Source: a virus (lineage: Duplodnaviria > Heunggongvirae > Uroviricota > Caudoviricetes). From it: a DNA stretch of 39,939 nt. The stretch is taken from IMG/VR virus record IMGVR_UViG_2671180758_000025. One strand, written 5' to 3'. Position 1 is the stretch's first letter. Each line of letters begins with the position of its first letter. The position numbers and the translations under genes are program-made. Below, piece by piece: positions 1,184 through 39,643 of the stretch. The notes beneath the pieces were generated by a model. The model was not told where the DNA came from. It saw nothing but the letters and a program-made list of their open reading frames with translations, and did not search any database.

Positions 1184-1666
1184 ATGGAAGAACTTCACTT
1201 TGTTTACATCAATGCAAATGGTCGTATCGGTGTTCACTCTATACAGAGCATCAGTTATAGCGAAAATCATATACAGGGCATTTGTAAGAACACCGATCGA
1301 ATAAAAACCTTCCGAAAAGACCGCATTCTTAAACAGTACGATTCACCAGAACAAGCCATTCAGGAATGCGCGTCATTCCTCCCCGAAAACTACTCACATC
1401 TCACTAAGCAGTCTGGTCCGAAAAAAAATACATTCGATGTGTGTTTCACCGGATTTAAGAAAGCAGATAAAGAAAGATTGGTTGATAAGGCGAATGAACA
1501 AGGATTAACGGTAAGAACCTCTGTAACCCAAAGCCTTCAGATGCTCTGTTGCGGTTACAATGCAGGCCCATCAAAAGTATCGGCAGCCAGGATGAAAGGC
1601 ACAATCATCATAGATGAGCCTGGCTTTATACATTTTCTTGAAACGGGTGAGATCCCAGATGAATAA
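1184..1666 (+). CDS. Cargo protein with WYL-like N-terminal and BRCT-like C-terminal region
   Basis: 160-aa ORF with AGAGG upstream of the ATG. N-terminus has a ...GRIGVHSI...KTFRKDRI... pattern like WYL domains; C-terminus (FDVCFTGF...GTIIIDEPGF) resembles the BRCT domain of NAD-dependent ligases. Visibly AT-rich; lies between the att core and ogr. Confidence 0.6.
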   Translation: MEELHFVYINANGRIGVHSIQSISYSENHIQGICKNTDRIKTFRKDRILKQYDSPEQAIQECASFLPENYSHLTKQSGPKKNTFDVCFTGFKKADKERLVDKANEQGLTVRTSVTQSLQMLCCGYNAGPSKVSAARMKGTIIIDEPGFIHFLETGEIPDE

Positions 1667-19556: not shown

Positions 19557-21323
19557 ATGAACACCACACTGACACCCGCAGATCTCGATCCCCGTCGGCA
19601 GGCCATGCTGCTGTACTTTCAGGGATACCGCGTAGCCCGCATTGCTGAAATGCTGGGCGAGAAAGTTGCAACCGTTCACAGCTGGAAAAAACGCGACAAG
19701 TGGGGTGACTATGGGCCGCTGGATCAGATGCAGCTCACCACCGCCGCACGCTACTGCCAGCTCATTATGAAGGAGCACAAAGAAGGGAAAGATTTCAAAG
19801 AAATTGACCTGCTGGCACGCCAGTCTGAGCGCCACGCGCGGATCGGCAAGTTTAACAATGGCGGCAACGAAGCCGACTTAAACCCTAACGTTGCCAACCG
19901 CAACAAAGGCCCACGTCGTCAGCCGGAAAAGAATGTTTTCACCGATGAACAGATTGAGAAACTGGAAGAAATCTTCCATTCCTCTATGTTCAACTACCAG
20001 CGCCACTGGTGGGAAGCCGGAAAAACCAACCGCATCCGCAACCTGCTGAAGTCACGCCAGATCGGCGCGACCTTTTACTTTGCCCGTGAAGCCCTGATTG
20101 ACGCCCTGCTGACCGGGCGTAACCAGATTTTCCTTTCTGCCAGCAAGGCTCAGGCCCACGTCTTTAAACAGTACATCATCGACTTTGCCAAAGAAGTGGA
20201 GGTGGAGCTGAAAGGCGATCCGATGGTGCTTCCTAACGGGGCCACGCTTTACTTCCTCGGCACCAATGCCCGCACGGCCCAGAGTTACCACGGCAACCTG
20301 TATCTGGATGAATATTTCTGGATACCGAAATTCCAGGAGCTGCGCAAAGTGGCTTCCGGTATGGCTATTCACAAAAAATGGCGACAAACCTATTTTTCCA
20401 CGCCATCCAGTCTGACACACAGTGCTTATCCGTTCTGGTCCGGTGCGCTGTTCAACCGTGGGCGCAACAAAGCCGATAAGGTGGACATCGACCTGTCCCA
20501 CAGCAATCTGGCCCCCGGCCTGCTGTGCGCAGACGGGCAATACCGCCAGATAGTCACCGTGGAAGATGCGGTGCGCGGCGGCTGTAACCTGTTCGACCTC
20601 GACCAGCTACGCATGGAGTACAGCCCAGACGAATACCAGAACCTGCTGATGTGCGAGTTTGTGGACGATCTCGCGTCCGTGTTTCCGCTCAGCGAGCTGC
20701 AGGCGTGCATGGTGGACAGTTGGGAAGTCTGGACCGACTTTCATGCACTGGCGCTGCGCCCGTTTGGCTGGCGCGAAGTGTGGATCGGTTATGACCCGGC
20801 AAAAGGTACGCAAAACGGCGACAGCGCTGGATGCGTGGTGGTGGCACCGCCAGCCGTGCCGGGTGGTAAGTTCCGCATTCTTGAGCGTCACCAGTGGCGC
20901 GGGATGGACTTCCGCGCCCAGGCTGACGCCATCAAAAAACTTACCGAACAGTACAACGTGACTTATATCGGTATCGACTCAACCGGCGTTGGTCACGGGG
21001 TTTACGAGAACGTGAAAGCGTTTTTTCCTGCCGTCCGGGAGTTTGTCTACAACCCCAACGTTAAAAACGCCCTGGTACTCAAGGCCTACGACATTATCAG
21101 CCACCGCCGTCTGGAGTTTGACGCCGGACACACCGACATAGCGCAGTCCTTTATGGCAATCCGTCGCGCCACCACCGCCAGTGGCAACCGCCCGACCTAT
21201 GAAGCCAGCCGCAGCGAAGAAGCCAGCCACGCCGATCTGGCCTGGGCAACGATGCACGCACTGTTTAACGAACCGCTGCAGGGCGAGTCCGCCAATACCA
21301 GTAATATTGTGGAGATTTTTTGA
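19557..21323 (+). CDS. P: Terminase large (ATPase) subunit (P2 gpP homolog)
   Basis: 588-aa ORF; translation recognised as gpP family. Confidence 0.93.
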   Translation: MNTTLTPADLDPRRQAMLLYFQGYRVARIAEMLGEKVATVHSWKKRDKWGDYGPLDQMQLTTAARYCQLIMKEHKEGKDFKEIDLLARQSERHARIGKFNNGGNEADLNPNVANRNKGPRRQPEKNVFTDEQIEKLEEIFHSSMFNYQRHWWEAGKTNRIRNLLKSRQIGATFYFAREALIDALLTGRNQIFLSASKAQAHVFKQYIIDFAKEVEVELKGDPMVLPNGATLYFLGTNARTAQSYHGNLYLDEYFWIPKFQELRKVASGMAIHKKWRQTYFSTPSSLTHSAYPFWSGALFNRGRNKADKVDIDLSHSNLAPGLLCADGQYRQIVTVEDAVRGGCNLFDLDQLRMEYSPDEYQNLLMCEFVDDLASVFPLSELQACMVDSWEVWTDFHALALRPFGWREVWIGYDPAKGTQNGDSAGCVVVAPPAVPGGKFRILERHQWRGMDFRAQADAIKKLTEQYNVTYIGIDSTGVGHGVYENVKAFFPAVREFVYNPNVKNALVLKAYDIISHRRLEFDAGHTDIAQSFMAIRRATTASGNRPTYEASRSEEASHADLAWATMHALFNEPLQGESANTSNIVEIF

Positions 21324-22357
21324 TGGGAAAGAGTAAGAAGAACCGCGCTGCGGCGACGAATCAGATCCAGCATAAAAACCAAACTTCAGCCGAAGCATTC
21401 AGCTTCGGTGATCCCGTTCCTGTTCTGGACCGCCGGGAACTGCTGGACTATGTGGAATGCGTACAGACAGATCGTTGGTATGAGCCGCCAGTGAGTTTCG
21501 ACGGGCTGGCGCGTACCTTTCGCGCTGCCGTGCATCACAGTTCACCAATTGCGGTGAAATGCAACATTCTGACCAGTACCTACATCCCTCACCCGCTGCT
21601 CAGCCAGCAGGCTTTTTCACGTTTTGTGCAGGACTATCTGGTATTTGGTAACGCCTACCTGGAGAAACGCACGAACCGCTTCGGTGAAGTTATCGCCCTT
21701 GAGCCTGCTCTGGCAAAATACACCCGACGCGGGTTAGACCTGAATACCTACTGGTTTGTGCAATACGGTATGACAACCCAGCCGTATCAGTTCACGAAAG
21801 GCAGCATTTTTCATCTGATGGAACCGGACATCAACCAGGAGATCTACGGCCTGCCCGGCTATCTTTCTGCCATTCCGTCCGCCCTGCTCAATGAGTCCGC
21901 CACGCTGTTCCGCCGTAAGTATTACATCAACGGCAGTCATGCTGGTTTCATCATGTACATGACCGACGCTGCGCAGAACCAGGAGGACGTGAACAACCTC
22001 CGCAACGCGATGAAAAGCGCCAAAGGCCCTGGCAACTTCCGCAATCTGTTTATGTACTCGCCTAACGGCAAAAAGGACGGGCTTCAGATTATCCCGTTGT
22101 CAGAAGTCGCAGCGAAGGATGAGTTTCTGAATATCAAAAACGTGAGCCGTGACGACATGATGGCTGCGCACCGCGTGCCGCCGCAAATGATGGGGATAAT
22201 GCCTAATAATGTCGGGGGGTTTGGGGATGTGGAGAAAGCCAGTCGCGTATTTGTACGTAATGAATTAACGCCCTTGCAAAAAAGGCTACAAGAGCTGAAC
22301 GACTGGCTGGGCGAAGAAGTGATTAAATTTACGCCCTATATTCTTTCAGAAGAATAA
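21323..22357 (+). CDS. Q: Portal protein (P2 gpQ homolog)
   Basis: Start placed at the ATG overlapping the P stop (TGATG); the supplied ORF begins 3 nt earlier at TTG. Confidence 0.9.
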   Translation: MGKSKKNRAAATNQIQHKNQTSAEAFSFGDPVPVLDRRELLDYVECVQTDRWYEPPVSFDGLARTFRAAVHHSSPIAVKCNILTSTYIPHPLLSQQAFSRFVQDYLVFGNAYLEKRTNRFGEVIALEPALAKYTRRGLDLNTYWFVQYGMTTQPYQFTKGSIFHLMEPDINQEIYGLPGYLSAIPSALLNESATLFRRKYYINGSHAGFIMYMTDAAQNQEDVNNLRNAMKSAKGPGNFRNLFMYSPNGKKDGLQIIPLSEVAAKDEFLNIKNVSRDDMMAAHRVPPQMMGIMPNNVGGFGDVEKASRVFVRNELTPLQKRLQELNDWLGEEVIKFTPYILSEE

Positions 22358-22365
22358 TTCCGAAC

Positions 22366-23064
22366 TTATTTGTTTCTTCTTTGTTCACGCCTTGTCTTGG
22401 CTTCGATAAGGCGTTGAGGTTCAGTGTAAAGCCGTTCTAAAAAAAGATAGGTAAAATCTTCAAGATCCTCAGCAGCAGCTTTATCCAAAATACCTTCATG
22501 CGCTCCATCATTTCCGTCATCTTTAACGCATTCAGCTAGTTCCCTTAAAGCTTCAGGCAGTAGATGATTATCAAATAACCACTCCATTCTTAACCCTAGG
22601 CTTCTCCTTATTTTTTGCGCAGGCCCTTGCTCCCCATCAGGAAGAAGTCCTTTTGTGGCATAATCAAGGCAAAGCCTAAACATGGTTGCTGCTGCATTAT
22701 AACAACCTATAGCCAAACATTTCGCCCCTTCCTCATATGCACTATTGATATGCTCAGGTAAGAACTCTGGTGGCTCCTCTACTGCTAAGTCTGCTGGTGA
22801 TATAGGCCTAACAACCTCTGCAACTTCCTTTAAGCCGAATATTCCACTTTCCCAATTATAGCCATCTAAAGTTTTATTTTTCGTTAAAGGTCTGCAAAGA
22901 AACATTGTCGTTTTATGACACTCTCGGCAAACACAATAGACCTCGTACTCGTATGTTTTACCCCCGCCCAATGCATTGTAAACCCTAGTGCAATTCAGCC
23001 CATTAACATCAAACGCTATTTTTTGTGATCCACATCGTGGACAGTCATCCACTAACATAACCAT
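22366..23064 (-). CDS. Hypothetical cargo protein with N-terminal Cys4 zinc ribbon
   Basis: 232-aa ORF; CPRCGS...CVCRECHKT pattern at the N-terminus, then an acidic helical C-terminal region of no family I can name. Visibly AT-rich; converges on Q. Confidence 0.6.
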   Translation of the reverse strand: MVMLVDDCPRCGSQKIAFDVNGLNCTRVYNALGGGKTYEYEVYCVCRECHKTTMFLCRPLTKNKTLDGYNWESGIFGLKEVAEVVRPISPADLAVEEPPEFLPEHINSAYEEGAKCLAIGCYNAAATMFRLCLDYATKGLLPDGEQGPAQKIRRSLGLRMEWLFDNHLLPEALRELAECVKDDGNDGAHEGILDKAAAEDLEDFTYLFLERLYTEPQRLIEAKTRREQRRNK

Positions 23065-23174
23065 GTCAATTACTTCTCCCTATGAAAAAAATGAGTTGAA
23101 AAATTGAATATTCACGACTTAAAAAGCTAGCCTATTTAACACCATAATTTCATTAATTCAACCATGAGCGCGCG

Positions 23175-23193
23175 CTCGTATCCCCGCCACGCC
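23175..23193. other. Putative cos cohesive-end site
   Basis: Minus-strand GGCGTGGCGGGGATACGAG; the first 13 nt match the 186/P2 cohesive-end sequence as I recall it (GGCGTGGCGGGGAAAGCAT / GGCGAGGCGGGGAAAGCAC). Sits in a GC-rich non-coding gap. Confidence 0.35.
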
Positions 23194-23353
23194 TGCCCGC
23201 TTTATGTAGCGGTTTTCATGCGCCTGCATGACATAAGCAAAATCCCGCCACTCCTGGCGGGCCTCAGCTAAAACGATCCTCAAACGATCATGCGGATTCA
23301 TGCGGCATAGACATGCACAATCTCCAAAGCGGGCATCGAGACTTTTTGGAAAC

Positions 23354-23965
23354 CTACGTAACCACAGTTAATGTGTGCATCCTGTCTCGAATTGCATCAC
23401 ACGTCTCATCAAAAAGCTTGGTGATGGTTGTATGGTTCAACTCCGCCTCTTTCCAATAATTTTGCCCGTCAAATTCTGGATCGCTATGCTTAAACGATAT
23501 TGACTCTGAAAGGCATTCCTTCCGGAAACGGTCCAAGATTATATAAACCTCTGGTGAGATGAACGGTTTGTTAGATTCAACACTTGTAACAAAAGTGTTA
23601 AATGCATCAAAAAAAACTTTCAACCTTCTAAATTTTCTCTCTTCAAATGGTTCGTTGGGGTCAACATGATCCAGCGCAGGCCTCAGCTTAAGCACGCTTT
23701 CTCTAGTTTCAAACATCGAATTCCAAATGAGACTATATGCTGATAACTCCTTATCAAAATACGCTTTCGTTACATAAACAGAATTGTCTAACTTAGCCTT
23801 TATTCTTTCATTAGTTGCACTCAGTTGTGATTGAAATTCAGCAATATCTTTGTTTAGCCGCGACTTATATCTTTCTAAATAAACTTTCCCGATCCAAACA
23901 AATATGCCAGATGCAACAAAAGACACCCCACCCAACGAAGCCAGAACTTTAAAGACTAAATCCAT
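23354..23965 (-). CDS. Hypothetical membrane-anchored cargo protein
   Basis: 203-aa ORF with a single N-terminal TM helix (VLASLGGVSFVASGIFVWIG) and a soluble domain of unknown family; AT-rich. Confidence 0.6.
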   Translation of the reverse strand: MDLVFKVLASLGGVSFVASGIFVWIGKVYLERYKSRLNKDIAEFQSQLSATNERIKAKLDNSVYVTKAYFDKELSAYSLIWNSMFETRESVLKLRPALDHVDPNEPFEERKFRRLKVFFDAFNTFVTSVESNKPFISPEVYIILDRFRKECLSESISFKHSDPEFDGQNYWKEAELNHTTITKLFDETCDAIRDRMHTLTVVT

Positions 23966-24347: not shown

Positions 24348-24581
24348 TTAGTGCAGCCAGCTGTCGTCTTCCCAAACCTGTTGCATAATTTCCATCACCC
24401 GCTTTTTGTCTTCATCAAGCTTTAAGCCACTCAGCTCAACGCCGTTTGCCGACCCTTTACGGATGCGGATAGCGGTCTTGGGATAGATGGGTTGCAGGTT
24501 GCGGTAAAGCTCGGACTCCAGAGCGTCCAGGGTAGACTGGCTAATCTTCTGCTCTTTATCGATCATTATTTCAATGCGCAT
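24348..24581 (-). CDS. DinI-family protein
   Basis: Translation from internal start MRIEIMIDKEQ...EDDSWL aligns with E. coli DinI (MRIEVTIAK...WESADDW) from memory. The supplied ORF extends to 24653. Confidence 0.75.
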   Translation of the reverse strand: MRIEIMIDKEQKISQSTLDALESELYRNLQPIYPKTAIRIRKGSANGVELSGLKLDEDKKRVMEIMQQVWEDDSWLH

Positions 24582-24591
24582 AAAAGTCACC

Positions 24592-24780
24592 TCAGCTGAT
24601 GACATCCATTGAGCGGTTGTATTCGTGGCTTCTGATTTTTGCCATGAGTTCATCAGTCAATTCAGAAACCCACTGCAGGGCCAGCCCCTTCTCTTCATCA
24701 CTACACTCACTAGCCGCTACAAGCTTAAGAAAAAAATCAATGCGCTGGAGCTTCAAAGACTCCAAAAAATAGTCCTGCAT
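24592..24780 (-). CDS. Small SOS-controlled protein (possible antirepressor-like module)
   Basis: 62-aa ORF from the ATG preceded by AGGAGG, with a LexA box 44-59 nt upstream; the supplied ORF extends to 24882. Confidence 0.5.
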   Translation of the reverse strand: MQDYFLESLKLQRIDFFLKLVAASECSDEEKGLALQWVSELTDELMAKIRSHEYNRSMDVIS

Positions 24781-24933: not shown

Positions 24934-27348
24934 TTAATACAGGTTCCGCCACTTATCATCTTCCTGCAAACGCTGGTTCCGATAGAAGACACGCAGGCCT
25001 GCTCCTGACGGAATACTGCCGCCGCGAAGGAGTAAATCGACCTCTTTCTCGCTGCCATCAAATCCTCTGGACTTCAGTTCATAGACGAGCTGCTGTCGTT
25101 GATGGTCTGTAATTCGCTGTTTGTAGTCTCTACGCCGTTTCGGTTTCACCAGGCGTAACCTTGCAGCCAGTTCCCGGCGCTCTTTTTTGTTCATACTGTG
25201 CAGGTAATCGTGCAACTCCTTGTCATCCATGTGGGTAATGTCCGTTCTGGTATCCCCATCAGCTGATTTGTCTTTCCCTTGTTGGTTCAAATTTTCAGCA
25301 AGGGGACAGTTATTGCCACGAGTCCAAGGGGCGCAAGCGCCCTGGTCGGCTGCCGCCTCCTGAATGTCAACGGCCTTACGAACCATTTTCCACTTCACCG
25401 CATGAGTGCAGATCTTGCCCTCTGCAATGGGTGACCAGATGCCATAAATACGAATACCGTGATCGCCATAGGCGGTCGGCTCTTCGTTGATTTCATAAGC
25501 GGTTCTGATGAGGTGATATTTGCGGGGAACTAGTACGCCGCCCTGCTTCATGATGTAGGTGGCAAAACAACCAGCATCAGCAGCGGCTAGGATGGCATCA
25601 AGGCGCGGGTTATCCAGTACCGGCGCACCTGCTTTTTTGTCCCCCTGTTGCCTTGCCGCCTGACCAGCCAGCAATCGCAGTTCACGGTAAGCCTGACGCC
25701 CCGGAATGCCAAAGAAGCGGAATTGCTGAACACGATGCAGAGACGCCCAGGCATTAACGTATTCAGCGTTATCACGCAGGGATTTACCCGTTTCCTTGCT
25801 GATCTCGCCAGCCAGACCACGCCCGTCAATGTTCTTACTGATGTATTTCGCGATGTAGCTTGTTGGCGTACCTTTGCGCGGGTTTATCAGCTCAGACTTA
25901 AAGCGTGGTTCCGTGTTATTACCCAGCTCCTCGCGGTCTTCACGAATGGCAAACTTACGCAACAAAGCAGTAATGGCGCGGCGATCTTTTTTGCGCATAA
26001 AACACAACAGGTGCCAGTGAACTGTACCGTCATGATGCGGCTCAGCCACCCGCACGCCATACCAGCGTAATCCGGCTTTGTGCATCGCCTTACGAAATGC
26101 AGCAAACATACCGACCAGATAATCACTGCTTTGTCTTACCGTCGCATTTGTCCAGGTCGGGTTGGGCCTGCCGTTATTTAGCGTGGAATGGAAACGTGAC
26201 GGACAGGTGATGGTGTAGAAAACGGCGCAGTCACCGCGCATTTCCGCGATAAGCTCCAGACCTTTAACACAGGCCATCATCTCATTGCGGCGATGTGCAG
26301 GGTTGCTGCTGCTGGCGTTTACCACGTCTTCCATATCCAGCGTGTCGCCGTCTTCGTTCACCAGTTCATGAGAACGGAAAAACTCCAGCGACTTACGGCG
26401 CTGCTCACGTTTATGCATCACGGCTTCATAGCTGACATAGGGAGATGCTTTTTTGCTGACCAGGCAAACAGCACGCAACTGCTCTTCCCGCCATTCGCAA
26501 CGCATCTTCCATAATTTCCGATACCACCAGTCGGCGCATAACATACGCGCCAGCGAACCCGGAATGAGTTCATAAGGCACGGGTTTACGGCGGTTTCTTT
26601 TCCGACGGAGTTGCTCAAACGCAGGCGGGATAACATCCAGACGCAGGGTTTCCGCTGCCACCTTTTCCCATGTTTTGCGGATTTCTTCTGGCTTAATGTC
26701 ATCGGTGACATACAAATCACCACAAGCTGCATCAAGGCACATGCTCATATGCGCGGCGACAAGGGTAGACAGGCGCTTCACCTGATCCTGACTCATTTCA
26801 GGCAGGATCAGCAGGCCGTCCAGCCCTTCATGGCTTGCCATAAAGCGAAAAGAAGTGGATAGCTGACAGTCGCGTACATGCTCCAGTCGTTCCAGACATG
26901 GCTTAATCGTCTCACGCAAATAGCGGGAATAAGCCTTTGGCCTGCCCAGGCTGCTGAAGTATTCAATACGTTGCATCAGCGACTTGCTGATATGGGAAGG
27001 CTGGGCGTTAACGTCCGCCAGAATGACCATGTCTGGATTAAAACGCTGCTGCTCATGCGCCAGCTTTGCCCGGCTAATGAGCTTATCCTGCTCCATTTCG
27101 CGTTGGACAGGATCACGGGATTCATTAAAGAAATAACGCTCCCAGACCTGATCACTCAGTGCCTCGCGGCGCAGCTGTTCCTGCTCGTTATCGGCAGCGT
27201 ACAGAGTGATCAGGTTTGAAAGCGCAGAAACCGGCGCAACTTCCGCCGGGTCCAGATAAGGGTTAATGGCCTTTTTCGGGCTGTTCCATGAGAACGCTGC
27301 GGCAGCCTCGTTAAAGCCGCAGCAGTTGTTCATATCGGCATGGCTCAT
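24934..27348 (-). CDS. A: Replication initiation endonuclease (P2 gpA family)
   Basis: 804-aa ORF; start overlaps the dam stop (ATGA); position and translation consistent with rolling-circle initiator A. Confidence 0.88.
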
Positions 27349-31031: not shown

Positions 31032-32060
31032 ATGACGATCAGAAAACAGCCGAACGGAAAGTGGTTATGTGAATGCTACCCAAACGGGAGAGATGGCAAA
31101 CGCGTACGCAAACAATTTGCGACGAAAGGCGAAGCCATTGCGTTTGAGAATTTCACCATGGATGAGGTAAACAAGAAACCTTGGCTGGGAGAAAAGGAAG
31201 ATCGGCGACCACTGTCAGAAGTGATTGAGCAATGGTATTCCCTGTACGGTCAGACACTCGCTGACCCTAAGCGATTAATGGCTAAGCTAAAAATCATTTG
31301 TAATGGGCTTGGCGATCCCATCGCTTCTGAATTGACAGCAGGTGATTTCACAAAGTACCGGGAAGCCAGATTAAAAGGTGAGATCAAAAACGAAGATGGC
31401 GTGCTCATGTCACCGGTTAAGCCCCGCACGGTAAACCTTGAACAACGCAATCTGTCATCGGTGTTCGGTACATTGAAAAAACTAGGGCACTGGTCCGCAC
31501 CAAACCCACTGGCAGGGCTTCCAACCTTCAAAATTGCTGAAGGTGAATTGGCTTTTCTTTCCACGGACGAAATCAAACGCCTGCTTAATGCCTGCGCCGA
31601 ATCTCAAAACACCAGCCTACTAATGATTGCAAAAATATGCCTGGCTACTGGTGCGCGATGGAGTGAAGCAGAAAACCTACAGGGCCACCAAATATCGAAA
31701 TACCGAATTACTTATACAAAGACCAAAGGCAAGAAAAACAGAACAGTACCCATATCACAGGAGCTGTATGACGAACTCCCAAAGAACAGAGGGAAGTTAT
31801 TCTCACCATGTAGAAAAGCCTTTGAACGAGCAGTAAAACGGGCAGGTATAGATCTACCGGAGGGCCAATGCACCCACGTACTGCGCCATACATTCGCTAG
31901 CCATTTTATGATGAACGGCGGAAACATACTCGTGTTGCGCGACATCCTTGGTCACTCGGATATAAAAATGACTATGGTTTATGCACATTTTGCACCTGAT
32001 CATTTAGAGGATGCAGTATCAAAAAACCCTTTATATAGATTAAAATGGACCACACCATGA
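31032..32060 (+). CDS. int: Tyrosine integrase (P2/186 type)
   Basis: 342-aa ORF with the C-terminal catalytic signature ...HVLRHTFASHFMMNGGNILVLRDILGHSDIKMTMVYAHF. Confidence 0.92.
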   Translation: MTIRKQPNGKWLCECYPNGRDGKRVRKQFATKGEAIAFENFTMDEVNKKPWLGEKEDRRPLSEVIEQWYSLYGQTLADPKRLMAKLKIICNGLGDPIASELTAGDFTKYREARLKGEIKNEDGVLMSPVKPRTVNLEQRNLSSVFGTLKKLGHWSAPNPLAGLPTFKIAEGELAFLSTDEIKRLLNACAESQNTSLLMIAKICLATGARWSEAENLQGHQISKYRITYTKTKGKKNRTVPISQELYDELPKNRGKLFSPCRKAFERAVKRAGIDLPEGQCTHVLRHTFASHFMMNGGNILVLRDILGHSDIKMTMVYAHFAPDHLEDAVSKNPLYRLKWTTP

Positions 32061-33076
32061 CTCAAGAATTCGTAATTAGCTATATAAAAAAACCAGAAAC
32101 ATCTACTTTCCTTATAATTTTTTATTTAATATATCTATTTATTGAATACACAAAAAACAAAAATAATAATTATTTCGAAATGACTGAGGAAAGGCTAACA
32201 AAACAAAATTTATTTAAACAATCCATCAGAATACCTATTATCTCATCCTTATACTTCGGTATATTCTCATGGATGGGACACTCTCCTCAATTTGATGCTG
32301 ATGGATTTTCAAACTTCATTGAAATAAGCAAGTTGCCTATCGCTCTTCTTTCCCTTTCGATACCCTTTGTAGCTATAGTCGCTAACATTCACAGAACAAT
32401 ACAAACGGAAAATCAAATTAGGAAAACACAGCAACAGATAGATCTAGTGACTGAGAAAAACCGCAGTGATGCTTACTACGCTCACCTCAAGAATTATTCG
32501 GATATGTTTAAAACGTTACCGTCATTTACCCTTTCTCGTCGAGATAATACAACTTTCGAAAAAGACACAATTAAACTATCTGTAGATCATACCTACTCAT
32601 TATATAAAAAAATATTCACAAAATCCTCAATCTCTACTGGATATAATAATGAAGTTGATAAATCATTCCTTGAAAAATTAGAAAATATATATAACAGCAT
32701 TGGGCATGAAATAGCAAGATACAATCAGCTTTACCCAAAACAAGTTAACATATCTAATTTAGAGAACATTGAAGCACAAGTGGTATGGCTGTGTAGAGAA
32801 CTAGGAGTTAATTATGAAAGAGAAGTCAACAAATTTGAGATTTTTGATCCGATATCAAACTTAGGAATAGAAACATCATTTTCAGATGAAAAAGAAATAA
32901 AAGAAATGCTTCGTGGATTACGAGATATATTGATATCTCTGTACATGCTAATTGATCAAAATACAATTATTTTCCAAGCAACTGCCAATAACGGTGATTT
33001 TTTAGCCAATTATGCTTACGATCCAGATTTTTTGATTTTTAAGGGGATCTTACCTATAGATTCTCAAGGTAAATAA
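32057..33076 (+). CDS. Hypothetical AT-rich membrane protein between int and the att core
   Basis: Three predicted TM segments in the first ~115 residues, then a ~220-aa soluble region of unknown family. Start chosen at the ATG overlapping the int stop (ATGA); an upstream ATG at 32045 is also possible. Confidence 0.6.
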   Translation: MTQEFVISYIKKPETSTFLIIFYLIYLFIEYTKNKNNNYFEMTEERLTKQNLFKQSIRIPIISSLYFGIFSWMGHSPQFDADGFSNFIEISKLPIALLSLSIPFVAIVANIHRTIQTENQIRKTQQQIDLVTEKNRSDAYYAHLKNYSDMFKTLPSFTLSRRDNTTFEKDTIKLSVDHTYSLYKKIFTKSSISTGYNNEVDKSFLEKLENIYNSIGHEIARYNQLYPKQVNISNLENIEAQVVWLCRELGVNYEREVNKFEIFDPISNLGIETSFSDEKEIKEMLRGLRDILISLYMLIDQNTIIFQATANNGDFLANYAYDPDFLIFKGILPIDSQGK

Positions 33077-33235: not shown

Positions 33236-33400
33236 CTTTTTAGTTGTTTGAAGTTCAATGAAGTCTACTAAGCCCACACAGCACAAGCTCTGCGGGCTTT
33301 TTTACGTCTATTGTCGTCCAGTGAGAATTGCTGAGAACTACGAGTTATGGCACCCTGAATGGGACCCATTAAGAAGGGTCCAAAAACCGAGGGTCCCAAA

Positions 33401-34630
33401 ATGGCAAAAATCGCTAAGAAGCTCACTGACACTGAAATCAAAAGCACCAAGCCAGCCGATAAAGAAATCAACTTGTTTGACGGTGATGGTCTGATTCTAC
33501 GAATCGCTCCTTTGGCGAAAGGAGGCAAGAAAAATTGGTATTTCAGGTATGCAGTACCAGTGAGCAAGAAAAGAACCAAAATGAGCCTTGGGACATATCC
33601 TCACCTTACCCTTGCAAGAGCCAGAGCCTTACGTGATGAATATCTCTCCTTTCTGGCAAATGGTGTTGATCCCCAAATCCATAACAACGATAAGGCGAAG
33701 GCATTAAAGAGTGCTACTGAGCACACTCTCCAAGCCGTAGCGCGGAAATGGTTAGATGAGAAGGTAAAGACATCAGGTATCTCACAAGACCATGCAGCAG
33801 ACATCTGGCGCAGCTTAGAGAGAAATGTCTTTCCCGGTCTGGGTAATGTCCCTATCAATGAGATCCGACCTAAGCTCTTAAAACAACACCTTGATCCTAT
33901 TGAGCAACGAGGCGTATTGGAAACTCTACGCCGTATCATTTCACGTCTGAATGAAATCTTCCGGTGGGCAGCTACTGAAGAACTTATTGAGTTCAACCCG
34001 GCTGACAACCTTGGTCAAAGATTCAGTAAACCAAAAAAGCAAAATATGCCTGCCCTTCCCCCAAGCGAATTGCCAAGGTTTATGGAATCTTTGACGAATG
34101 CGTCAATCCGGTTGGAAACACGTATGCTAATTGAATGGCAATTGTTGACATGGGTTCGTCCGGGTGAAGCCGTTCGCGCAAGGTGGTCTGATATTGATAC
34201 AACCAACAGCATTTGGAACATTCCTGCTGATTTCATGAAAATGAAAAAGCTTCACAAAGTTCCTTTGAGTAAAGAAGCTTTGCGCATCCTTGAATTAATG
34301 AAATCAATAAGTGGGCATAGAGAATGGGTTTTCCCCAGCATAAAAGCGCCTCTTAATCATATGCATGAACAAACAGCCAACGCAGCTATCATCCGAATGG
34401 GGTTCGGAGGCGAGCTTGTAGCTCACGGTATGCGTTCTATTGCACGAACAGCGGCAGAGGAGTCTGGTAAATTCAGAGCTGAAGTTCTTGAGGCAGCGCT
34501 TGCCCACTCGAAAAAAGATGAAATTATCGCAGCATACAATCGTGCAGAATATCTGATAGAGCGACAGAGTTTGATGCAATGGTGGAGTGATTACGTTCAA
34601 GCTCAAAGATCAAATGCTCTGGTAGCCTAA
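33401..34630 (+). CDS. intA: P4-type tyrosine integrase (IntA-like, CP4-57 family)
   Basis: Start at MAKIAKKLTDTEIKSTKP... with GAGGG upstream; typical P4-family N-terminus; 165 bp from the att core. The supplied ORF begins at 33359. Confidence 0.88.
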   Translation: MAKIAKKLTDTEIKSTKPADKEINLFDGDGLILRIAPLAKGGKKNWYFRYAVPVSKKRTKMSLGTYPHLTLARARALRDEYLSFLANGVDPQIHNNDKAKALKSATEHTLQAVARKWLDEKVKTSGISQDHAADIWRSLERNVFPGLGNVPINEIRPKLLKQHLDPIEQRGVLETLRRIISRLNEIFRWAATEELIEFNPADNLGQRFSKPKKQNMPALPPSELPRFMESLTNASIRLETRMLIEWQLLTWVRPGEAVRARWSDIDTTNSIWNIPADFMKMKKLHKVPLSKEALRILELMKSISGHREWVFPSIKAPLNHMHEQTANAAIIRMGFGGELVAHGMRSIARTAAEESGKFRAEVLEAALAHSKKDEIIAAYNRAEYLIERQSLMQWWSDYVQAQRSNALVA

Positions 34631-34668
34631 GTATCAGAATAGCTAATATAATCCTGAAGGTAAAGAAA

Positions 34669-35085
34669 ATGGAAACCCTATTCAAAGTTTTTGAAAAATT
34701 TAGTTCCAGACCACTTTTTTTTATTTTTTTCGGACTCTCACTTTGTGAATTTTTTCAGAAACAATCTGTTCTGATGAATCCATCAGCAGATAACATCGCG
34801 AAATTATTCGCAGCCATGATATTAGTTGTTTTTTTTACTTGGGGATTTGAATGGCTAATCTTCAAGTTCAATGTAAACCTTGAACCTCATGATCAAGGCG
34901 ATATTGGACCAACAATTGGAACGGCTACTTTAGCTGTATACTTAGTTTATGCCTTTCACTTTCTCAGTGAAAATCCTGAAGCATTAAATTTAAAGTTATT
35001 AACTAACTCTGGCTTTATATACAGCACAACTCTATTATTATTCTCATTAGAATGCATGAAGCTTAGAAGACTTAAACAAAAATAA
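34669..35085 (+). CDS. Small hypothetical membrane protein
   Basis: 138-aa ORF with 3-4 hydrophobic segments; AT-rich; convergent with the kinase/receiver pair. Confidence 0.45.
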   Translation: METLFKVFEKFSSRPLFFIFFGLSLCEFFQKQSVLMNPSADNIAKLFAAMILVVFFTWGFEWLIFKFNVNLEPHDQGDIGPTIGTATLAVYLVYAFHFLSENPEALNLKLLTNSGFIYSTTLLLFSLECMKLRRLKQK

Positions 35086-35156
35086 ACAACATCATTGTGA
35101 TGATAAATATAAAATAGGCATGGCGAAAAAAAATCACCACGCCTAAAATATAATAA

Positions 35157-36905
35157 TTATGGTAGCATCATTGATACATAATCCACACCAATCCTTGAGC
35201 TATACTGAGACGCTATAGCCTGATATCTTTCTGCATAACCAGTTCTCAGTTGAGATTTAAGTTTGAGTCGGACAGGAACATTTTGCACGTTGCCATCCAT
35301 ATTACTTAAAAACACGGCAGAAATAATATTTTTTTCTTCGCCATCAACTGTTGTTCCATGATTCAACACCACCATATAATCAACAACAGGAAGCGTTTTA
35401 TCCCCTTCGAAAATAGAGAGATATTTTCTTTGATTTTTATGCATTACATATATATATTTCGAATGTTCAGCAAATGGCAATGCTTTACTCTGACTGGCGT
35501 TAAAAAGCTCCAGAACTTTAATGAGCCTGTGCGGACTTAATCTTACATGGTGAGGGTCGTTACCCTGAGTAGGAACCAAATCACATGCCGCAGATACACA
35601 TAAATACCATTTGTTCGACTCTGTATCAAAGAAAATAGTGCCAGTAGAAATATGACCATCTTCAAAATTCTTTGAAGACAAATTCATATTTAAAGCATGA
35701 TACATTTCGTGATAAGTATCATTATTTGATGGCAGATCCATTTTTGAAGAGCAATATTGGAGCAATGCAGCAACTCCGCTGTTAGCGTATTCATTTGAAT
35801 AGCTATCAAAAACACTTTTGATAAATTCATCCAGCGTATTATTATTTTTAAGTCTTTGATAAAGCTCTTCTGATAAATTACCAAATACAAAGTCAATATT
35901 TCTACATCTAATATCAGGCGAGTCTGATTTTAATATCTCATTTAACCACGCAGCTTGACCGTAATGATCGTTAGCCAAATGATTTACAAAAGATAAAGCC
36001 TCAGCTTCGATTGCATTCTGAATTTCAGATTTTATTAACTGATAATAAGATGGTTTCCATTCAATGAGAGAATCATTGAGAGTTTGCCAAATCCTATCTC
36101 CATCGTTTTCATGATCATCTTGAACCTTATGAAATAGGGAGACAAAGATATTACCACATTGAATCCATTTTACTCCGCTTTCATCACCCCGAATGACATT
36201 GCCAGATGTGTTGCTAGAAATAATTGCATTTCTAGACACAGCATATTCTGCAATCATTTTTGCAATGAAGTTTTTATCCTTTTGATCCTCCAACACAGCA
36301 TCATCATGTATTAATCTTTTAATTCTTCTACAAGGCTTACTGTCTTTAATATAGGCTATTGTTTCATCTCTTGTGAGAGCTTTATTACCATTATCATTTA
36401 AGTTCGGTAATACAACGTCTTCCCAATAACTTTGGACATCTTCATTATCGTAGTCAATGATCAAGCTGTTGATATCCAGAGCACCTTTGAGAGTCGATGA
36501 TATCTGCATCCAAACCGTTTCTAAATTCTCTCTAGTATATATTACAATCATATTTAAATGATCGGAGTCTTTCAAATCTTGTAATAGTTTAAGTGTTTTA
36601 TCAGGTGCATTATTATCAAGATGATAATCTACAATAATAAGATCTGATTTTCTAATCCGATCCACATCGAAATTAACAGAACCATTGTCAACATCACAAA
36701 TCATATTTTTAGATTGAAAAAAGCTCTCAAGAGTAGCGGCTCGTTTAGATGAGTCAATTTTGTTGTAGTCTAAATCAACTTCGTTATTCAACGCCCTGAT
36801 TGATTCAGAATACGTCAGAAAATCGTCATCAATCATGACAACGGAACGAATTGCATTTTCGCAGAAAGTTTTCTGGACAAGAGAATTATAATTTGCCACT
36901 GTCAT
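35157..36905 (-). CDS. Receiver (REC)-domain protein with large unrecognised C-terminal domain
   Basis: N-terminus has CheY-like landmarks (VVMIDDD, LIIVDYHL, MIVIYT); about 450 aa follow with no motif I can name. Start chosen 1 nt after the kinase stop, with GGAG upstream; an ATG at 36923 is also possible. Confidence 0.7.
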   Translation of the reverse strand: MTVANYNSLVQKTFCENAIRSVVMIDDDFLTYSESIRALNNEVDLDYNKIDSSKRAATLESFFQSKNMICDVDNGSVNFDVDRIRKSDLIIVDYHLDNNAPDKTLKLLQDLKDSDHLNMIVIYTRENLETVWMQISSTLKGALDINSLIIDYDNEDVQSYWEDVVLPNLNDNGNKALTRDETIAYIKDSKPCRRIKRLIHDDAVLEDQKDKNFIAKMIAEYAVSRNAIISSNTSGNVIRGDESGVKWIQCGNIFVSLFHKVQDDHENDGDRIWQTLNDSLIEWKPSYYQLIKSEIQNAIEAEALSFVNHLANDHYGQAAWLNEILKSDSPDIRCRNIDFVFGNLSEELYQRLKNNNTLDEFIKSVFDSYSNEYANSGVAALLQYCSSKMDLPSNNDTYHEMYHALNMNLSSKNFEDGHISTGTIFFDTESNKWYLCVSAACDLVPTQGNDPHHVRLSPHRLIKVLELFNASQSKALPFAEHSKYIYVMHKNQRKYLSIFEGDKTLPVVDYMVVLNHGTTVDGEEKNIISAVFLSNMDGNVQNVPVRLKLKSQLRTGYAERYQAIASQYSSRIGVDYVSMMLP

Positions 36906-36906
36906 A

Positions 36907-38625
36907 TTAGAACTCCACTCCATTGAACTGGATCACAAAATTAGCGCCATCTTTTATTAAATAGTTATCGCCTTCATCAGGTTCTGAATACCATATTTTA
37001 TGATGTGCAACAGCAAGGTTTTCTCGACATAGATACAGACCTACCCCATGTCCATTTGCTCTTTTGCTATAAAATAGTTCAAATAGTCGCGGGATATCAT
37101 CGGTATCAATTGCCGGACCAGAATTTGCTATGATAACCAAAGAATTCACAAAACCAATATTTATGAGCCTATTATTTGACAGACTGACCCAATACATTGC
37201 ATTGTTGATAATATTAGTAAAAACAGGATAGATCCTTGATGGTATATCTGTTATTGCGATTTGCTTAAACTCTTCACTAAATTCAATAGTTATTCGTTGC
37301 CGTTCGAAACGCTCCCCAAAGAACTTCAGGACATAATCCATGATATTTTTTCCAGTTATTCTCTGCCTGGATTGATAACCTGATATTTTCAAAGGTGATA
37401 AGAAACGTATTTGTTGAGTAAGCGATCTGTGAGCATTTAACGCCAATGAAAAACCAGGGTGTTCTTTTACAGAAGTAGGAAGAGAGTTTAGTCCTCTGGT
37501 TACCATAGAATCCATTTCTTCAAGTTCATGAGATATTATCTCAACACTAATACCTAACTGTGCAAGCGCGTTTAAACTTTTAGCTTTTTCTTCAAAATAT
37601 GAGCGTTCTTCTTCAGATAATGAGAATGCTGAATCTAAGTTTATACCTTCAAATAATCTATCGAGACCTTTTATTATTGATTGATATTTGAAAGTTAGGG
37701 TATCAACTGACTCAACATATAAACTATCGAGCAAATTAAACACATTTTCAATTTGTGAATCATTATCTATTGAATCAACAACTGATATAGTTTTAGCATA
37801 ATAATCACTTCGATCAACCTTTATTTCATCGGCCCATTTTTTTAAAAGAGAATGTATCTTCTCCTCTATCGTGTTATTAAACTTAGTTAGTTTAGAATTA
37901 ATAATACCTTGATTTTTTTCAAGGTGATTTTTCGCTGACAATGAAGGCTCAAGTTTATTTAATTCAGAATCAAGTTTATTAATTGCTAACTTCATTTGTA
38001 GAATATACGCAGAGAATTCATTAAATTTATCTCTGTAGTCTCTATATTTCTCTTCATACATTCCAAGTTTTGGAGGTTTGATAGGCGTTTTAATTTCACT
38101 GCGCAACGCATCTAAGTTTGTAAGATCACTGTCTATAATTTTAAGATAGTTTAAATCTAACGAACCATCAGTTTTATCAAGCTTAGTTTTCAGCCTTTTA
38201 ACAGCCTCCAAGGAAGCATCAAGAACTGGTGTCTGATTCTTCAAAGCTTCTGAAAAACTTTTTTGTGTTGATTTTCGAGCTTGTTGTTGAGCAGATTTTC
38301 TTAACTCTTTTTCACGCTTAACTTGTTCTAAAAGCTCTTTACGGTCATCAGAACGTGAACCAAAAAATCTATCAGCAAGTTCAGTTAACAAATTAGATAT
38401 AATAGTTTTCAGTTCTCTTGCAGCCTGGTTTCTTATGAATCCCTCTCTCCCCGACTTATCTTTCAGCTCTTTATTACTGGATTGAGTAATTCCAATATAA
38501 CCAAAAATCCTTCTATTAGACCAATAATATCGCCCTGCATTCCATGAACGTCTTTCTTCTATCTGGAAGAAATCATTATCTACTCGACCATAAGGTAATA
38601 CTCTCAAGCTATCCCTAAAAATCAT
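36907..38625 (-). CDS. Cytoplasmic histidine-kinase-like protein (HisKA + HATPase_c core); 5' end may be disrupted
   Basis: C-terminal third carries H-box-like ISHELEEM, N-box NIINNAMYW, G1-like ANSGPAID, F-box FELFYS and G2 GHGVGLYLC. No TM helices; Lys/Glu-rich coiled-coil N-terminal region. The frame stays open upstream to the IS3 end. Confidence 0.7.
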   Translation of the reverse strand: MIFRDSLRVLPYGRVDNDFFQIEERRSWNAGRYYWSNRRIFGYIGITQSSNKELKDKSGREGFIRNQAARELKTIISNLLTELADRFFGSRSDDRKELLEQVKREKELRKSAQQQARKSTQKSFSEALKNQTPVLDASLEAVKRLKTKLDKTDGSLDLNYLKIIDSDLTNLDALRSEIKTPIKPPKLGMYEEKYRDYRDKFNEFSAYILQMKLAINKLDSELNKLEPSLSAKNHLEKNQGIINSKLTKFNNTIEEKIHSLLKKWADEIKVDRSDYYAKTISVVDSIDNDSQIENVFNLLDSLYVESVDTLTFKYQSIIKGLDRLFEGINLDSAFSLSEEERSYFEEKAKSLNALAQLGISVEIISHELEEMDSMVTRGLNSLPTSVKEHPGFSLALNAHRSLTQQIRFLSPLKISGYQSRQRITGKNIMDYVLKFFGERFERQRITIEFSEEFKQIAITDIPSRIYPVFTNIINNAMYWVSLSNNRLINIGFVNSLVIIANSGPAIDTDDIPRLFELFYSKRANGHGVGLYLCRENLAVAHHKIWYSEPDEGDNYLIKDGANFVIQFNGVEF

Positions 38626-38776
38626 TAGTCCTGCATACTTTTTGGCCTTAAGATCAAAGTGGGAATGTTCACGTTCAGTATGTGATGTATTTTGTGAAAG
38701 GAATTCAAACGTTCCTATCTGAAGCTCAAATGGGCCGACCCCTGCGTGATCCTACCCACGTAATATGGACACAGGC

Positions 38777-39643
38777 CTAAGCGAGGTTCTTGTTTTCAAA
38801 TTGTTCCGGACTGAGGCCGCCACACCAACTGTGCCGCCGCCACCGATTGTAATCACATTCGATATAATTAAACACCGTTGCCCGCATTATTTCCCGGCTG
38901 ATAAAGTGTTCTCCATGGATACATTCCACTTTCAGCGAATGAAAGAAGCTTTCCACGCAGGCATTATCGTAGCAGCAACCTTTTGCGCTCATACTTCCAC
39001 GCAGATTATGCCGCTTCAGTTGCGCCTGATAATCTGCTGAACAGTACTGGCCTCCACGGTCCGTGTGAACGATAACGTTCCGGGGCCTCTTACGCCGCCA
39101 CAGCGCCATCTGCAGGGCATCGCAGGCCAGTTGCGCCGTCATGCGTGGCGACATTGACCAGCCAATAACGGCACGTGACCACAGGTCAATGACCACTGCC
39201 AGATACAGCCAGCCTTCATCTGTACGTAAGTACGTGATGTCTCCTGCCCACTTCTGGTTCGGGCCACTGGCGTAAAAATCCTGCTCCAACAGATTTTCTG
39301 ACACAGGCAGACCGTGTGCGCGGTAGCAGACCGGGCTGAACTTCCGGGAGGCCTTTGCCCTCAGTCCCTGACGGCGCAGGCTTGCCGCCACGGTTTTTAC
39401 GTTAAAGGGGTAACCCTGAGCACGCAGTTCATCCGTCAGGCGTGGGGCACCGTAACGCTGTTTTGACCGGGTAAAAGCCGCGAGGACAACGCTGTCGCAG
39501 TGTTGGCGGAACTGCTGACGCGTGCTTATCCTTGTCCGCCGCTGACACCACGTATACCAGCCGCCGCGGGCCACCCGGAGCACGCGGCACATTGCTTTGA
39601 TGCTGAACTCAGCCTGATGTTTTTCAATAAAGACATACTTCAT
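38777..39643 (-). CDS. insF: IS3 transposase OrfB (integrase core)
   Basis: 288-aa ORF recognised as IS3 InsF; normally expressed as an OrfAB fusion by -1 frameshift. Confidence 0.9.

Follow-up and report, generated by a model that had tools for sequence, protein, structure and literature searches.

What kind of gene sits between the portal gene and the cohesive-end site of a P2-like prophage, and what could its product do? This question is raised by a 39,939-nucleotide stretch of viral DNA (IMG/VR record IMGVR_UViG_2671180758_000025; 'the window' hereafter), in which an open reading frame (ORF) of 232 amino acids at 22366–23064 on the minus strand lies between the portal gene Q and cos. We hold it to be close to certain that this ORF is a cargo gene of the defence hotspot described for P2-family prophages. 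Its sequence relationships further lead us to favour, with some reserve, the reading that it encodes a single-gene abortive-infection RNase with the architecture of RAZR (ring-activated zinc-finger RNase), which would be expressed in the lysogen.

The interval between Q and cos

The locus is made up of the following elements.

21320–22357, plus strand: portal gene Q, 345 amino acids, the constant boundary of the cargo slot on its left (Pfam Phage_portal, 4e-18; named 'Portal' in Cartapus, a P2-like prophage of E. coli LF82).
22366–23064, minus strand: cargo gene with an ATG start, encoding a 232-amino-acid Cys4 zinc-ribbon plus DUF4145/HEPN protein (WP_000245245.1; CARTA_1 / LF82_788).
23065–23174, minus strand: AT-rich spacer (32.7% GC) of 110 bp from cos to the ATG, read from the sequence.
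23175–23193, no strand assigned: cos, the 19-nucleotide cohesive-end sequence, GGCGTGGCGGGGATACGAG on the minus strand, placed by alignment with P2 cosL/cosR and the 186 cos.
23197–23212, plus strand: short hairpin directly beside cos, the counterpart of the conserved AAAACCGC...GCGG element that adjoins cosR in P2.

A first-pass annotation made from the sequence alone had described an AT-rich, 232-amino-acid ORF that converges on Q and ends 8 bp from its stop, and every element of that description was reproduced. The stop codons of Q (22357) and of the cargo ORF lie 8 bp apart in convergent genes, and the GC content is 41.6% in the ORF and 32.7% in the 110-bp spacer upstream of it, against 51.7% in Q, 56.1% in P and 55.2% in the structural genes. 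A Shine-Dalgarno sequence, GGGAGAAG, is found at 23073–23080, 8 nucleotides ahead of the ATG, and the gene's own promoter is presumed to lie within the spacer (23065–23174). One promoter candidate, TTGAAT-17-TAAATA with a TG extension, was dropped because it is not conserved.

The convergent junction has no canonical terminator: the rho-independent terminators tQ, which follows Q in P2, and tW, which follows the portal gene in 186, are absent from positions 22358–22420 of the window, and late P–Q transcripts may consequently run antisense through the cargo gene. The sole hairpin in this region (~22387–22414) carries no U-tract and sits within the 3′ end of the cargo gene.

The same annotation had proposed a cos-like sequence at 23175–23193 and had stated that in P2 the portal gene lies close to cos. 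Both statements hold. The reverse complement of 23175–23193 shares 15 of 19 bases with the cohesive end of phage 186 and 14 of 19 with that of P2, and its flanks are conserved relative to the P2 cosR/cosL join (AAAACCGC..AAGCGGGC on one side, GCGCGC on the other), which marks it as a genuine cos; the Cartapus record likewise has a putative cos annotated over this stretch. The hairpin at 23197–23212 probably belongs to the packaging site. In P2 and 186 the portal stop is 167–176 bp from cos, with just a terminator in between, whereas the corresponding interval of the window measures 817 bp.

To see how this interval varies, we collected 160 loci through the Q protein and searched them with an extended cos pattern, which located cos in 146; with the window included, the pattern is present in 147 of 161 sequences. 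The cargo gene itself was found in 43 of 5426 complete E. coli genomes, against 1278 places in 1237 complete E. coli genomes for a related Q gene, so that about 3% of related E. coli prophages carry it; among the 58 enterobacterial species-level loci found through Q, it is present in four. The gene is therefore variably present among relatives and not part of the core genome, and with cos located where it had been placed, the insertion between Q and cos envisaged by the first-pass annotation stands. Its further view, that this placement is unusual in lying opposite the usual variable region, is true only by comparison with P2 and 186, since the interval is usually occupied in relatives. It is empty (<300 bp) in 9 of the 58 enterobacterial loci and in 2 of 75 IMG/VR contigs, it spans at least 1 kb in most loci, and it takes about 50 different lengths among the 75 contigs. 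P2 and 186, in which the Q side of cos is empty, are the unusual ones.

The occupied intervals contain 248 ORFs, which fall into 141 clusters. When the 10 recurrent clusters, each present in 3–7 loci, were searched with PADLOC, six matched defence models (retron reverse transcriptase type II-A, bSEFIR, an AbiU-like protein, PDC-M03A/B and PDC-S49). Moreover, 197 of the 205 slot cargo ORFs of at least 120 amino acids (loci L007–L166) are antisense to Q and read from cos towards Q, a near-uniform polarity that points to a fixed promoter-proximal end at cos.

These features place the gene in a known setting. The published P2 defence hotspot extends from gpA to gpQ (PMC9122126; PMC9519451; PMC13586616) and hence spans both sides of cos, and the gene order of the window fits it, with Q at 21320–22357, cos at 23175–23193 and A at 24934–27348. 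Within it, WP_000245245.1 was recorded 125 times as system #29, 'zinc_ribbon_13/DUF4145', and described as a 'Putative nuclease' (Rousset et al. 2022, Table S5B, PMC9122126), and the window's full A-to-Q arrangement is listed in Table S5A of the same study (PMC9122126). The hotspot papers define the locus by gpA and gpQ and do not separate the two sides of cos (PMC9122126; PMC13586616). In the loci compared here, cos divides the P2 hotspot into two sub-slots, and genes in the one on the Q side nearly always face the same way.

The protein is 100% identical to CARTA_1, which is also placed between cos and the portal gene in Cartapus, and nucleotide identity to LF82 is 99.9% for the cargo gene, 97.6% for the cos region, 98.2% for a 203-amino-acid gene beyond cos (described below) and 93.9% for Q. 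The step from 93.9% to 99.9% indicates a mosaic recombination joint at or near the 8-bp junction; in the complete E. coli genomes we found no Q more than 95.1% identical to that of the window.

Association with Q is a lasting property of the family. A scan of IMG/VR with the family profile returned 63 loci, and in 51 of these a homologue (49–100% identical) adjoins Q; 48 of the 51 converge on Q, ending 14–48 bp from the aligned Q end, in phages whose Q proteins are 62–98% identical. Measured from the 5′ edge of the cos core, the ATG is 97–130 bp away in the majority of the 51 loci (~80–112 bp past the cohesive end) and 178–892 bp away in nine of them. In some loci the cargo protein is 57% identical where Q is 87% identical. 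The retention of homologues beside Q in such diverged phages indicates that the family has long been resident in the slot, diverging faster than Q.

A zinc finger joined to a HEPN domain

The cargo protein divides into two parts.

22795–23064, minus strand: beta-rich zinc-finger domain, residues 1–90, with C8, C11, C46 and C49 and the strands of the AlphaFold2 model.
22420–22779, minus strand: helical HEPN (DUF4145) domain, residues 96–215, the presumed RNase effector.

Both halves had been foreseen by the first-pass annotation as an N-terminal Cys4 zinc ribbon and an acidic helical C-terminal domain. The zinc ribbon is present as C8-x2-C11 ... C46-x2-C49, and its pattern is family-wide: CxxC...CxxC occurs in 118 of 120 homologues, and in an alignment of 83 sequences reaching down to 32% identity (alignment A5) C46 and C49 are invariant while C8 and C11 are at least 90% conserved. 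Residues 96–215 have an isoelectric point of 4.46, with 25 Asp and Glu residues against 11 Lys and Arg residues, and are entirely helical in the model, so that composition and predicted structure both bear out the description of this domain; the last 17 residues of the protein are basic. The AlphaFold2 model built on alignment A5 (predicted local distance difference test score, pLDDT, 94.6; predicted template modelling score, pTM, 0.79) combines a helical C-domain with a beta-rich N-domain whose strands cover residues 3–6, 16–30, 36–46, 52–59 and 82–88. A model from the single sequence reached a pLDDT of 39 and was not used for fold search. The two domains have diverged to different degrees, with a mean pairwise identity of 34% in the N-domain (1–90) and 67% in the C-domain (96–215), and the N-terminal zinc finger is presumed to be the sensor.

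Profile comparison and structure prediction, the checks that the first-pass annotation had suggested for this protein, revealed a HEPN domain homologous to that of RAZR. Pfam DUF4145, a HEPN family in which fusions to zinc ribbons occur (PMC3710099), matches residues 114–203 above the gathering score (4.5e-7). PADLOC returned a significant but weak match, spanning both domains, to PD-T7-4, a model with no curated cutoff (26.1 bits, E 1.2e-6; residues 36–200 against 39–165 of 211 profile positions), and related zinc-ribbon/DUF4145 clades score 16–30 bits with this profile. The family is large, an exhaustive HMMER search having recovered 927 representative clusters (50% identity) at E ≤ 1e-3. 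Against the PDB sequences, neither the protein by itself nor a Burkholderia phage relative nor the shallow family profile A1 gave a match; the deeper profile of the 83 diverse members in A5 did, reaching PDB 9y9c chain OA at E 1.3e-4. This chain is a 219-amino-acid 'DUF4145 domain-containing protein' present in 24 copies, and it is RAZR, the protein formerly named PD-T7-4, 'Zn finger-HEPN' (Zhang et al., Nature 2026, PMC13017515; Vassallo et al. 2022, PMC9519451), whose source is E. coli UMB1727 and whose structures are PDB 9Y9C/9Y6U (PMC13017515).

For residue-level comparison, the RAZR sequence consisted of residues 15–54 and 77–191 as given by the HMMER alignment. hhalign aligned the family with RAZR 77–191 at 94.3% probability (E 1e-7, 21% identity), and counting residues along the alignment reproduced the published positions R146, H154, Q140 and D179/D180, confirming the identification of RAZR. 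The alignment pairs H189 of the cargo protein with H154 of RAZR, K181 with R146, the invariant R130 with R105, and E210 with D179. Taken together, the alpha-helical model, the RAZR alignment and the conserved active-site His support a HEPN core fold for the C-domain.

A proposed abortive-infection RNase and its alternatives

While the gene's place, its patchy occurrence, the folds of its domains, their homology to RAZR and the alignment of the active site are shown here, we infer that the protein acts against phages, that it is an RNase in which Lys does the work of Arg, and that ring sensing triggers it. RAZR is an abortive-infection RNase that combines a Cys4 zinc finger with a DUF4145/HEPN domain and is inert and non-toxic alone, requiring a phage trigger (PMC13017515). 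It is activated as a 24-mer around the portal rings of T7, T3 and SEC-phi18 or around an Erf-like ring, SEC-phi27 Gp77 (PMC13017515), upon which it cleaves single-stranded RNA non-specifically and aborts infection (PMC13017515); no other region of it varies as much as the zinc finger, which determines specificity (PMC13017515). The window's gene, an accessory ('moron') gene in the cos-to-Q half of the hotspot of a Cartapus/Fels-2-like P2-family prophage, would by analogy encode a single-polypeptide anti-phage system expressed in the lysogen. Its fast-evolving Cys4 zinc finger would recognise a protein of a superinfecting phage, as RAZR recognises the rim of portal or Erf-like rings. The conserved linker would join this finger to the HEPN domain, and oligomerisation would switch on a composite RNase active site (Lys181...His189). 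The active enzyme would then cut cellular and phage RNA, translation would stop, and the infection would be aborted.

Transcription in lysogens agrees with this scheme. The evidence is published RNA-seq of a single strain, LF82, whose gene is 99.9% identical. In log2 fragments per kilobase per million (fpkm), CARTA_1 stands at 4.65/4.71 in stationary lysogeny broth (LB) and at 9.2–9.6 in macrophages (PMC9928086 S1 Table), with 7.0–7.6 in the B1/B6 samples, an in-vitro medium condition in a study whose legend names LB, Dulbecco's modified Eagle's medium (DMEM) and macrophages (PMC9928086). The LF82 portal gene remains at 2.5–3.0 in all conditions (PMC9928086 S1 Table), and CARTA_1 thus exceeds it 3–4-fold in LB, which is below that study's own 5-fold cutoff, and about 100-fold in macrophages (PMC9928086). 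The gene fits the criteria of a moron: it is absent from most relatives, its GC content is 41.6% where ~55% is usual, and it is transcribed while the portal gene is silent.

Several observations weigh against the proposed function, and the first of them concerns the active site.

22498–22524, minus strand: codons of the HEPN active-site motif, here K181-D-D-G-N-D-G-A-H189 with Lys for Arg, placed by the RAZR alignment.

In RAZR, both R146 and H154 are needed, and R146A abolishes defence (PMC13017515). The cargo protein supplies the His of this R-x7-H requirement (H189) but has K181 in the place of the Arg, and Lys occupies the catalytic Arg position in 118 of 120 homologues of at least 49% identity, within KDDGNDGAH. 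Among 146 distant family representatives (32–55% identity), the same position is Arg in 73 and Lys in 46, and phage relatives at 25–44% identity have Arg there. Because it is fixed in close homologues while Arg is found in the wider family, we regard the Lys as a derived, conservative and fixed change. The spacing K-x7-H differs from the HEPN motif R-x4-6-H (Anantharaman et al. 2013), as does that of RAZR itself (R-x7-H), and DUF4145 is listed with the HEPN motif 'mostly conserved (80%)' (PMC3710099). Across the family of 927 clusters, the motif [RK]-x2-G-N-D-G-A-H is strongly constrained and the catalytic His is nearly invariant, and a site under such constraint is probably still catalytic with Lys.

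The remaining points against this function concern homology, expression and trigger. RAZR is a distant relative, with 21% of residues identical across the HEPN domain and a PD-T7-4 score of 26 bits, and the alignment of the zinc finger to RAZR 15–54 is weak and not significant by itself. A scan of the spacer region yielded no consensus promoter on the minus strand, and an alignment of the upstream regions of homologue loci showed conservation only at cos and the adjacent GCGCGC, with no promoter element. Part of the CARTA_1 signal in LF82 could be read-through from the upstream 203-amino-acid gene on the same strand. System #29 does not appear among the tested systems in the portion of the Rousset tables available to us (PMC9122126). 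Finally, RAZR-type proteins respond to portal rings, and the phage that hosts this gene makes a portal of its own, so the trigger may differ.

This last point suggests a tentative extension, to which we give little credence: that the clade evolved as a RAZR-type ring sensor alongside a portal-making phage and has become self-tolerant at induction. The long stay beside Q, the fixed Lys-for-Arg change and the terminator-less convergent junction could then be adaptations to self-tolerance, with late P–Q transcription, for example, running antisense through the cargo gene and switching the sensor off when the self-portal is made. If true, a phage-borne detector of a conserved phage structure would thereby possess an inbuilt means of telling self from non-self.

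Of the other explanations, the one that survives best, although we consider it unlikely, is an addiction or stabilisation toxin, or an RNase responding to stress (macrophage, SOS), that is not triggered by phage proteins. Such a role would suit the roughly 30-fold rise of the LF82 transcript from LB to macrophages. Yet the gene is flanked by cos and Q, with no adjoining small antitoxin or MNT gene, and its distribution is independent of the sole nearby cargo gene; its homologue RAZR is non-toxic alone and needs a phage trigger, and the hypervariability of the sensor domain suggests an arms race against a ligand that itself varies.

It is also conceivable, though distinctly improbable in our view, that the protein serves counter-defence or self-protection, a weak or dead HEPN protein coating the phage's own portal ring or co-assembling with a RAZR-type protein of the host, so that ring-sensing immunity of the host stays silent while the P2-like phage replicates. 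That RAZR-type proteins bind portal rings, that the clade is kept directly beside the portal gene even where Q proteins are merely 62–98% identical, and that 118 of 120 close homologues have Lys at the catalytic Arg position would all be expected of such a helper. An active enzyme, on the other hand, is a better fit to the wider family (35–50% identity), where Arg and Lys occur 73 and 46 times and the rest of the motif is nearly invariant; expression in the lysogen while late genes are silent is the pattern of lysogenic-conversion defence and not of a late-phase helper, and the other contents of the slot are defence systems.

A zinc-finger DNA-binding or regulatory phage protein, acting for example at cos or in late transcription, is very improbable. 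The protein matches phrog_1305, labelled 'DNA binding protein', and a zinc ribbon, a basic C-terminal tail and a gene next to cos would suit such a function, but PHROG labels are transferred annotations, the C-domain has a HEPN fold with a conserved active-site His, and absence of the gene from ~97% of related prophages, including P2 and 186, excludes a core role in packaging or regulation.

Two further elements on the A side of cos bear on the last alternative.

23354–23965, minus strand: second, independent cargo gene, 203 amino acids, on the A side of cos (phrog_26391).
23244–23261, minus strand: terminator-like hairpin of 7 bp (6 GC) followed by a U-rich tail, which ends the A-side transcription unit before cos.

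That the HEPN protein is half of a two-gene system spanning cos, with the 203-amino-acid protein as a membrane partner, is hardly credible and was rejected on independent distribution, for although both genes flank cos on the same strand, rise together in LF82 across conditions and share one Table S5A arrangement (Rousset, PMC9122126), the HEPN gene occurs without the 203-amino-acid gene in L014, L015, L023, L062 and L087 and the reverse holds in L122, the terminator-like hairpin stands between them, and Rousset et al. curated system #29 as a single protein.

Neighbouring elements and relation to known systems

The 203-amino-acid gene is itself AT-rich (38% GC), and its product, whose N-terminus looks hydrophobic as read from the sequence, has no significant Pfam or PADLOC match. 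Its LF82 copy, CARTA_47/LF82_789, has been classed as a 'moron' at 7-fold the prophage background, with a log2 fpkm of 10.5 in macrophages (PMC9928086). Towards A, a DinI ORF at 24348–24653 on the minus strand (101 amino acids) is longer than the DinI annotated in LF82 and Cartapus (234 bp); the Pfam DinI match covers residues 38–100 only, and the real start is hence probably internal.

Other features lie at or beyond the prophage ends. At one of them, a transfer-messenger RNA (ssrA) gene at 698–1060 on the plus strand is followed by a 160-amino-acid ORF (1184–1666, plus strand) that is 97% identical at the nucleotide level to CARTA_32 of Cartapus, a 'putative exonuclease' whose expression, at 15-fold background, is the highest among the Cartapus morons; this ORF has no Pfam match and a weak PADLOC match to PDC-S48. 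A 343-amino-acid ORF of ~30% GC (32045–33076, plus strand), with no Pfam or PADLOC match, overlaps the 3′ end of the integrase gene (31032–32060) by 16 bp and sits at the integrase-to-att position, a minor P2 defence hotspot in PMC13586616. Beyond the prophage there is a 33% GC island (33359–39643) with a second tyrosine integrase (33359–34630) and a two-gene module on the minus strand, made up of a HEF_HK/HATPase kinase (36907–38625) and a 588-amino-acid Response_reg_2 protein (35157–36923), followed by an IS3-family transposase (38777–39643). The kinase/receiver pair looks like a conflict-system module; PADLOC returned no match on the island (33359–39643).

The type of locus, the hotspot, the presence of this gene in it and the mechanism of its nearest characterised relative are published already. 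What is new here is modest and comprises the link of Rousset system #29 to RAZR together with the Lys variant, the recognition that the Q side of cos is a commonly used sub-slot in this lineage with near-uniform polarity, and the long residence of the cargo family beside the portal gene. If the proposed function is true, the family would constitute a second, widespread clade of ring-sensing zinc-finger RNases, with 927 clusters and the gene carried by ~1% of complete E. coli genomes; its differing active-site residue and sensor domains would offer a ready comparison for the specificity and activation of RAZR, and it would inform how a prophage can carry a detector of portal-like rings without harm. 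For annotation, homologues of WP_000245245 can be called RAZR-like instead of 'DUF4145' or 'DNA binding protein'.

Among known loci, the closest is the cos-proximal hotspot of P2 itself (the old/tin locus; 'hotspot #1' of Vassallo), which has the same gpA–gpQ position and the same variable, defence-rich content. In P2 the cargo genes old and tin occupy the A side of cos, with transcription leading from cos to A; in the window the cargo gene occupies the Q side, and transcription leads from cos to Q.

Among known proteins, RAZR is likewise a single polypeptide of ~220–230 amino acids with a Cys4 zinc ribbon, a conserved linker and a C-terminal DUF4145/HEPN domain; in both, the zinc finger is the most variable part, the catalytic His is aligned and the gene is carried on mobile elements. 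The differences are the ~21% identity of the HEPN domains and Lys181 in place of the essential Arg146. Compared with AbiV, the HEPN domain of AbiA, HepT toxins and Csm6/Csx1, the cargo protein has no MNT antitoxin, CARF or polymerase partner, and it is set apart from other HEPN abortive-infection and toxin RNases by its zinc-ribbon sensor and by the x7 spacing of RAZR/DUF4145, in contrast to the classical x4-6. The same two-domain architecture recurs at 25–32% identity in Stx phages (POCJ13, 75/02 Stx) and Burkholderia phages (phi644-2 gp55, phiBt-TXDOH), whose proteins differ in keeping the Arg (VRIDANKAVH, VRLDGNDALH) and in occupying other positions in lambdoid or other phages.

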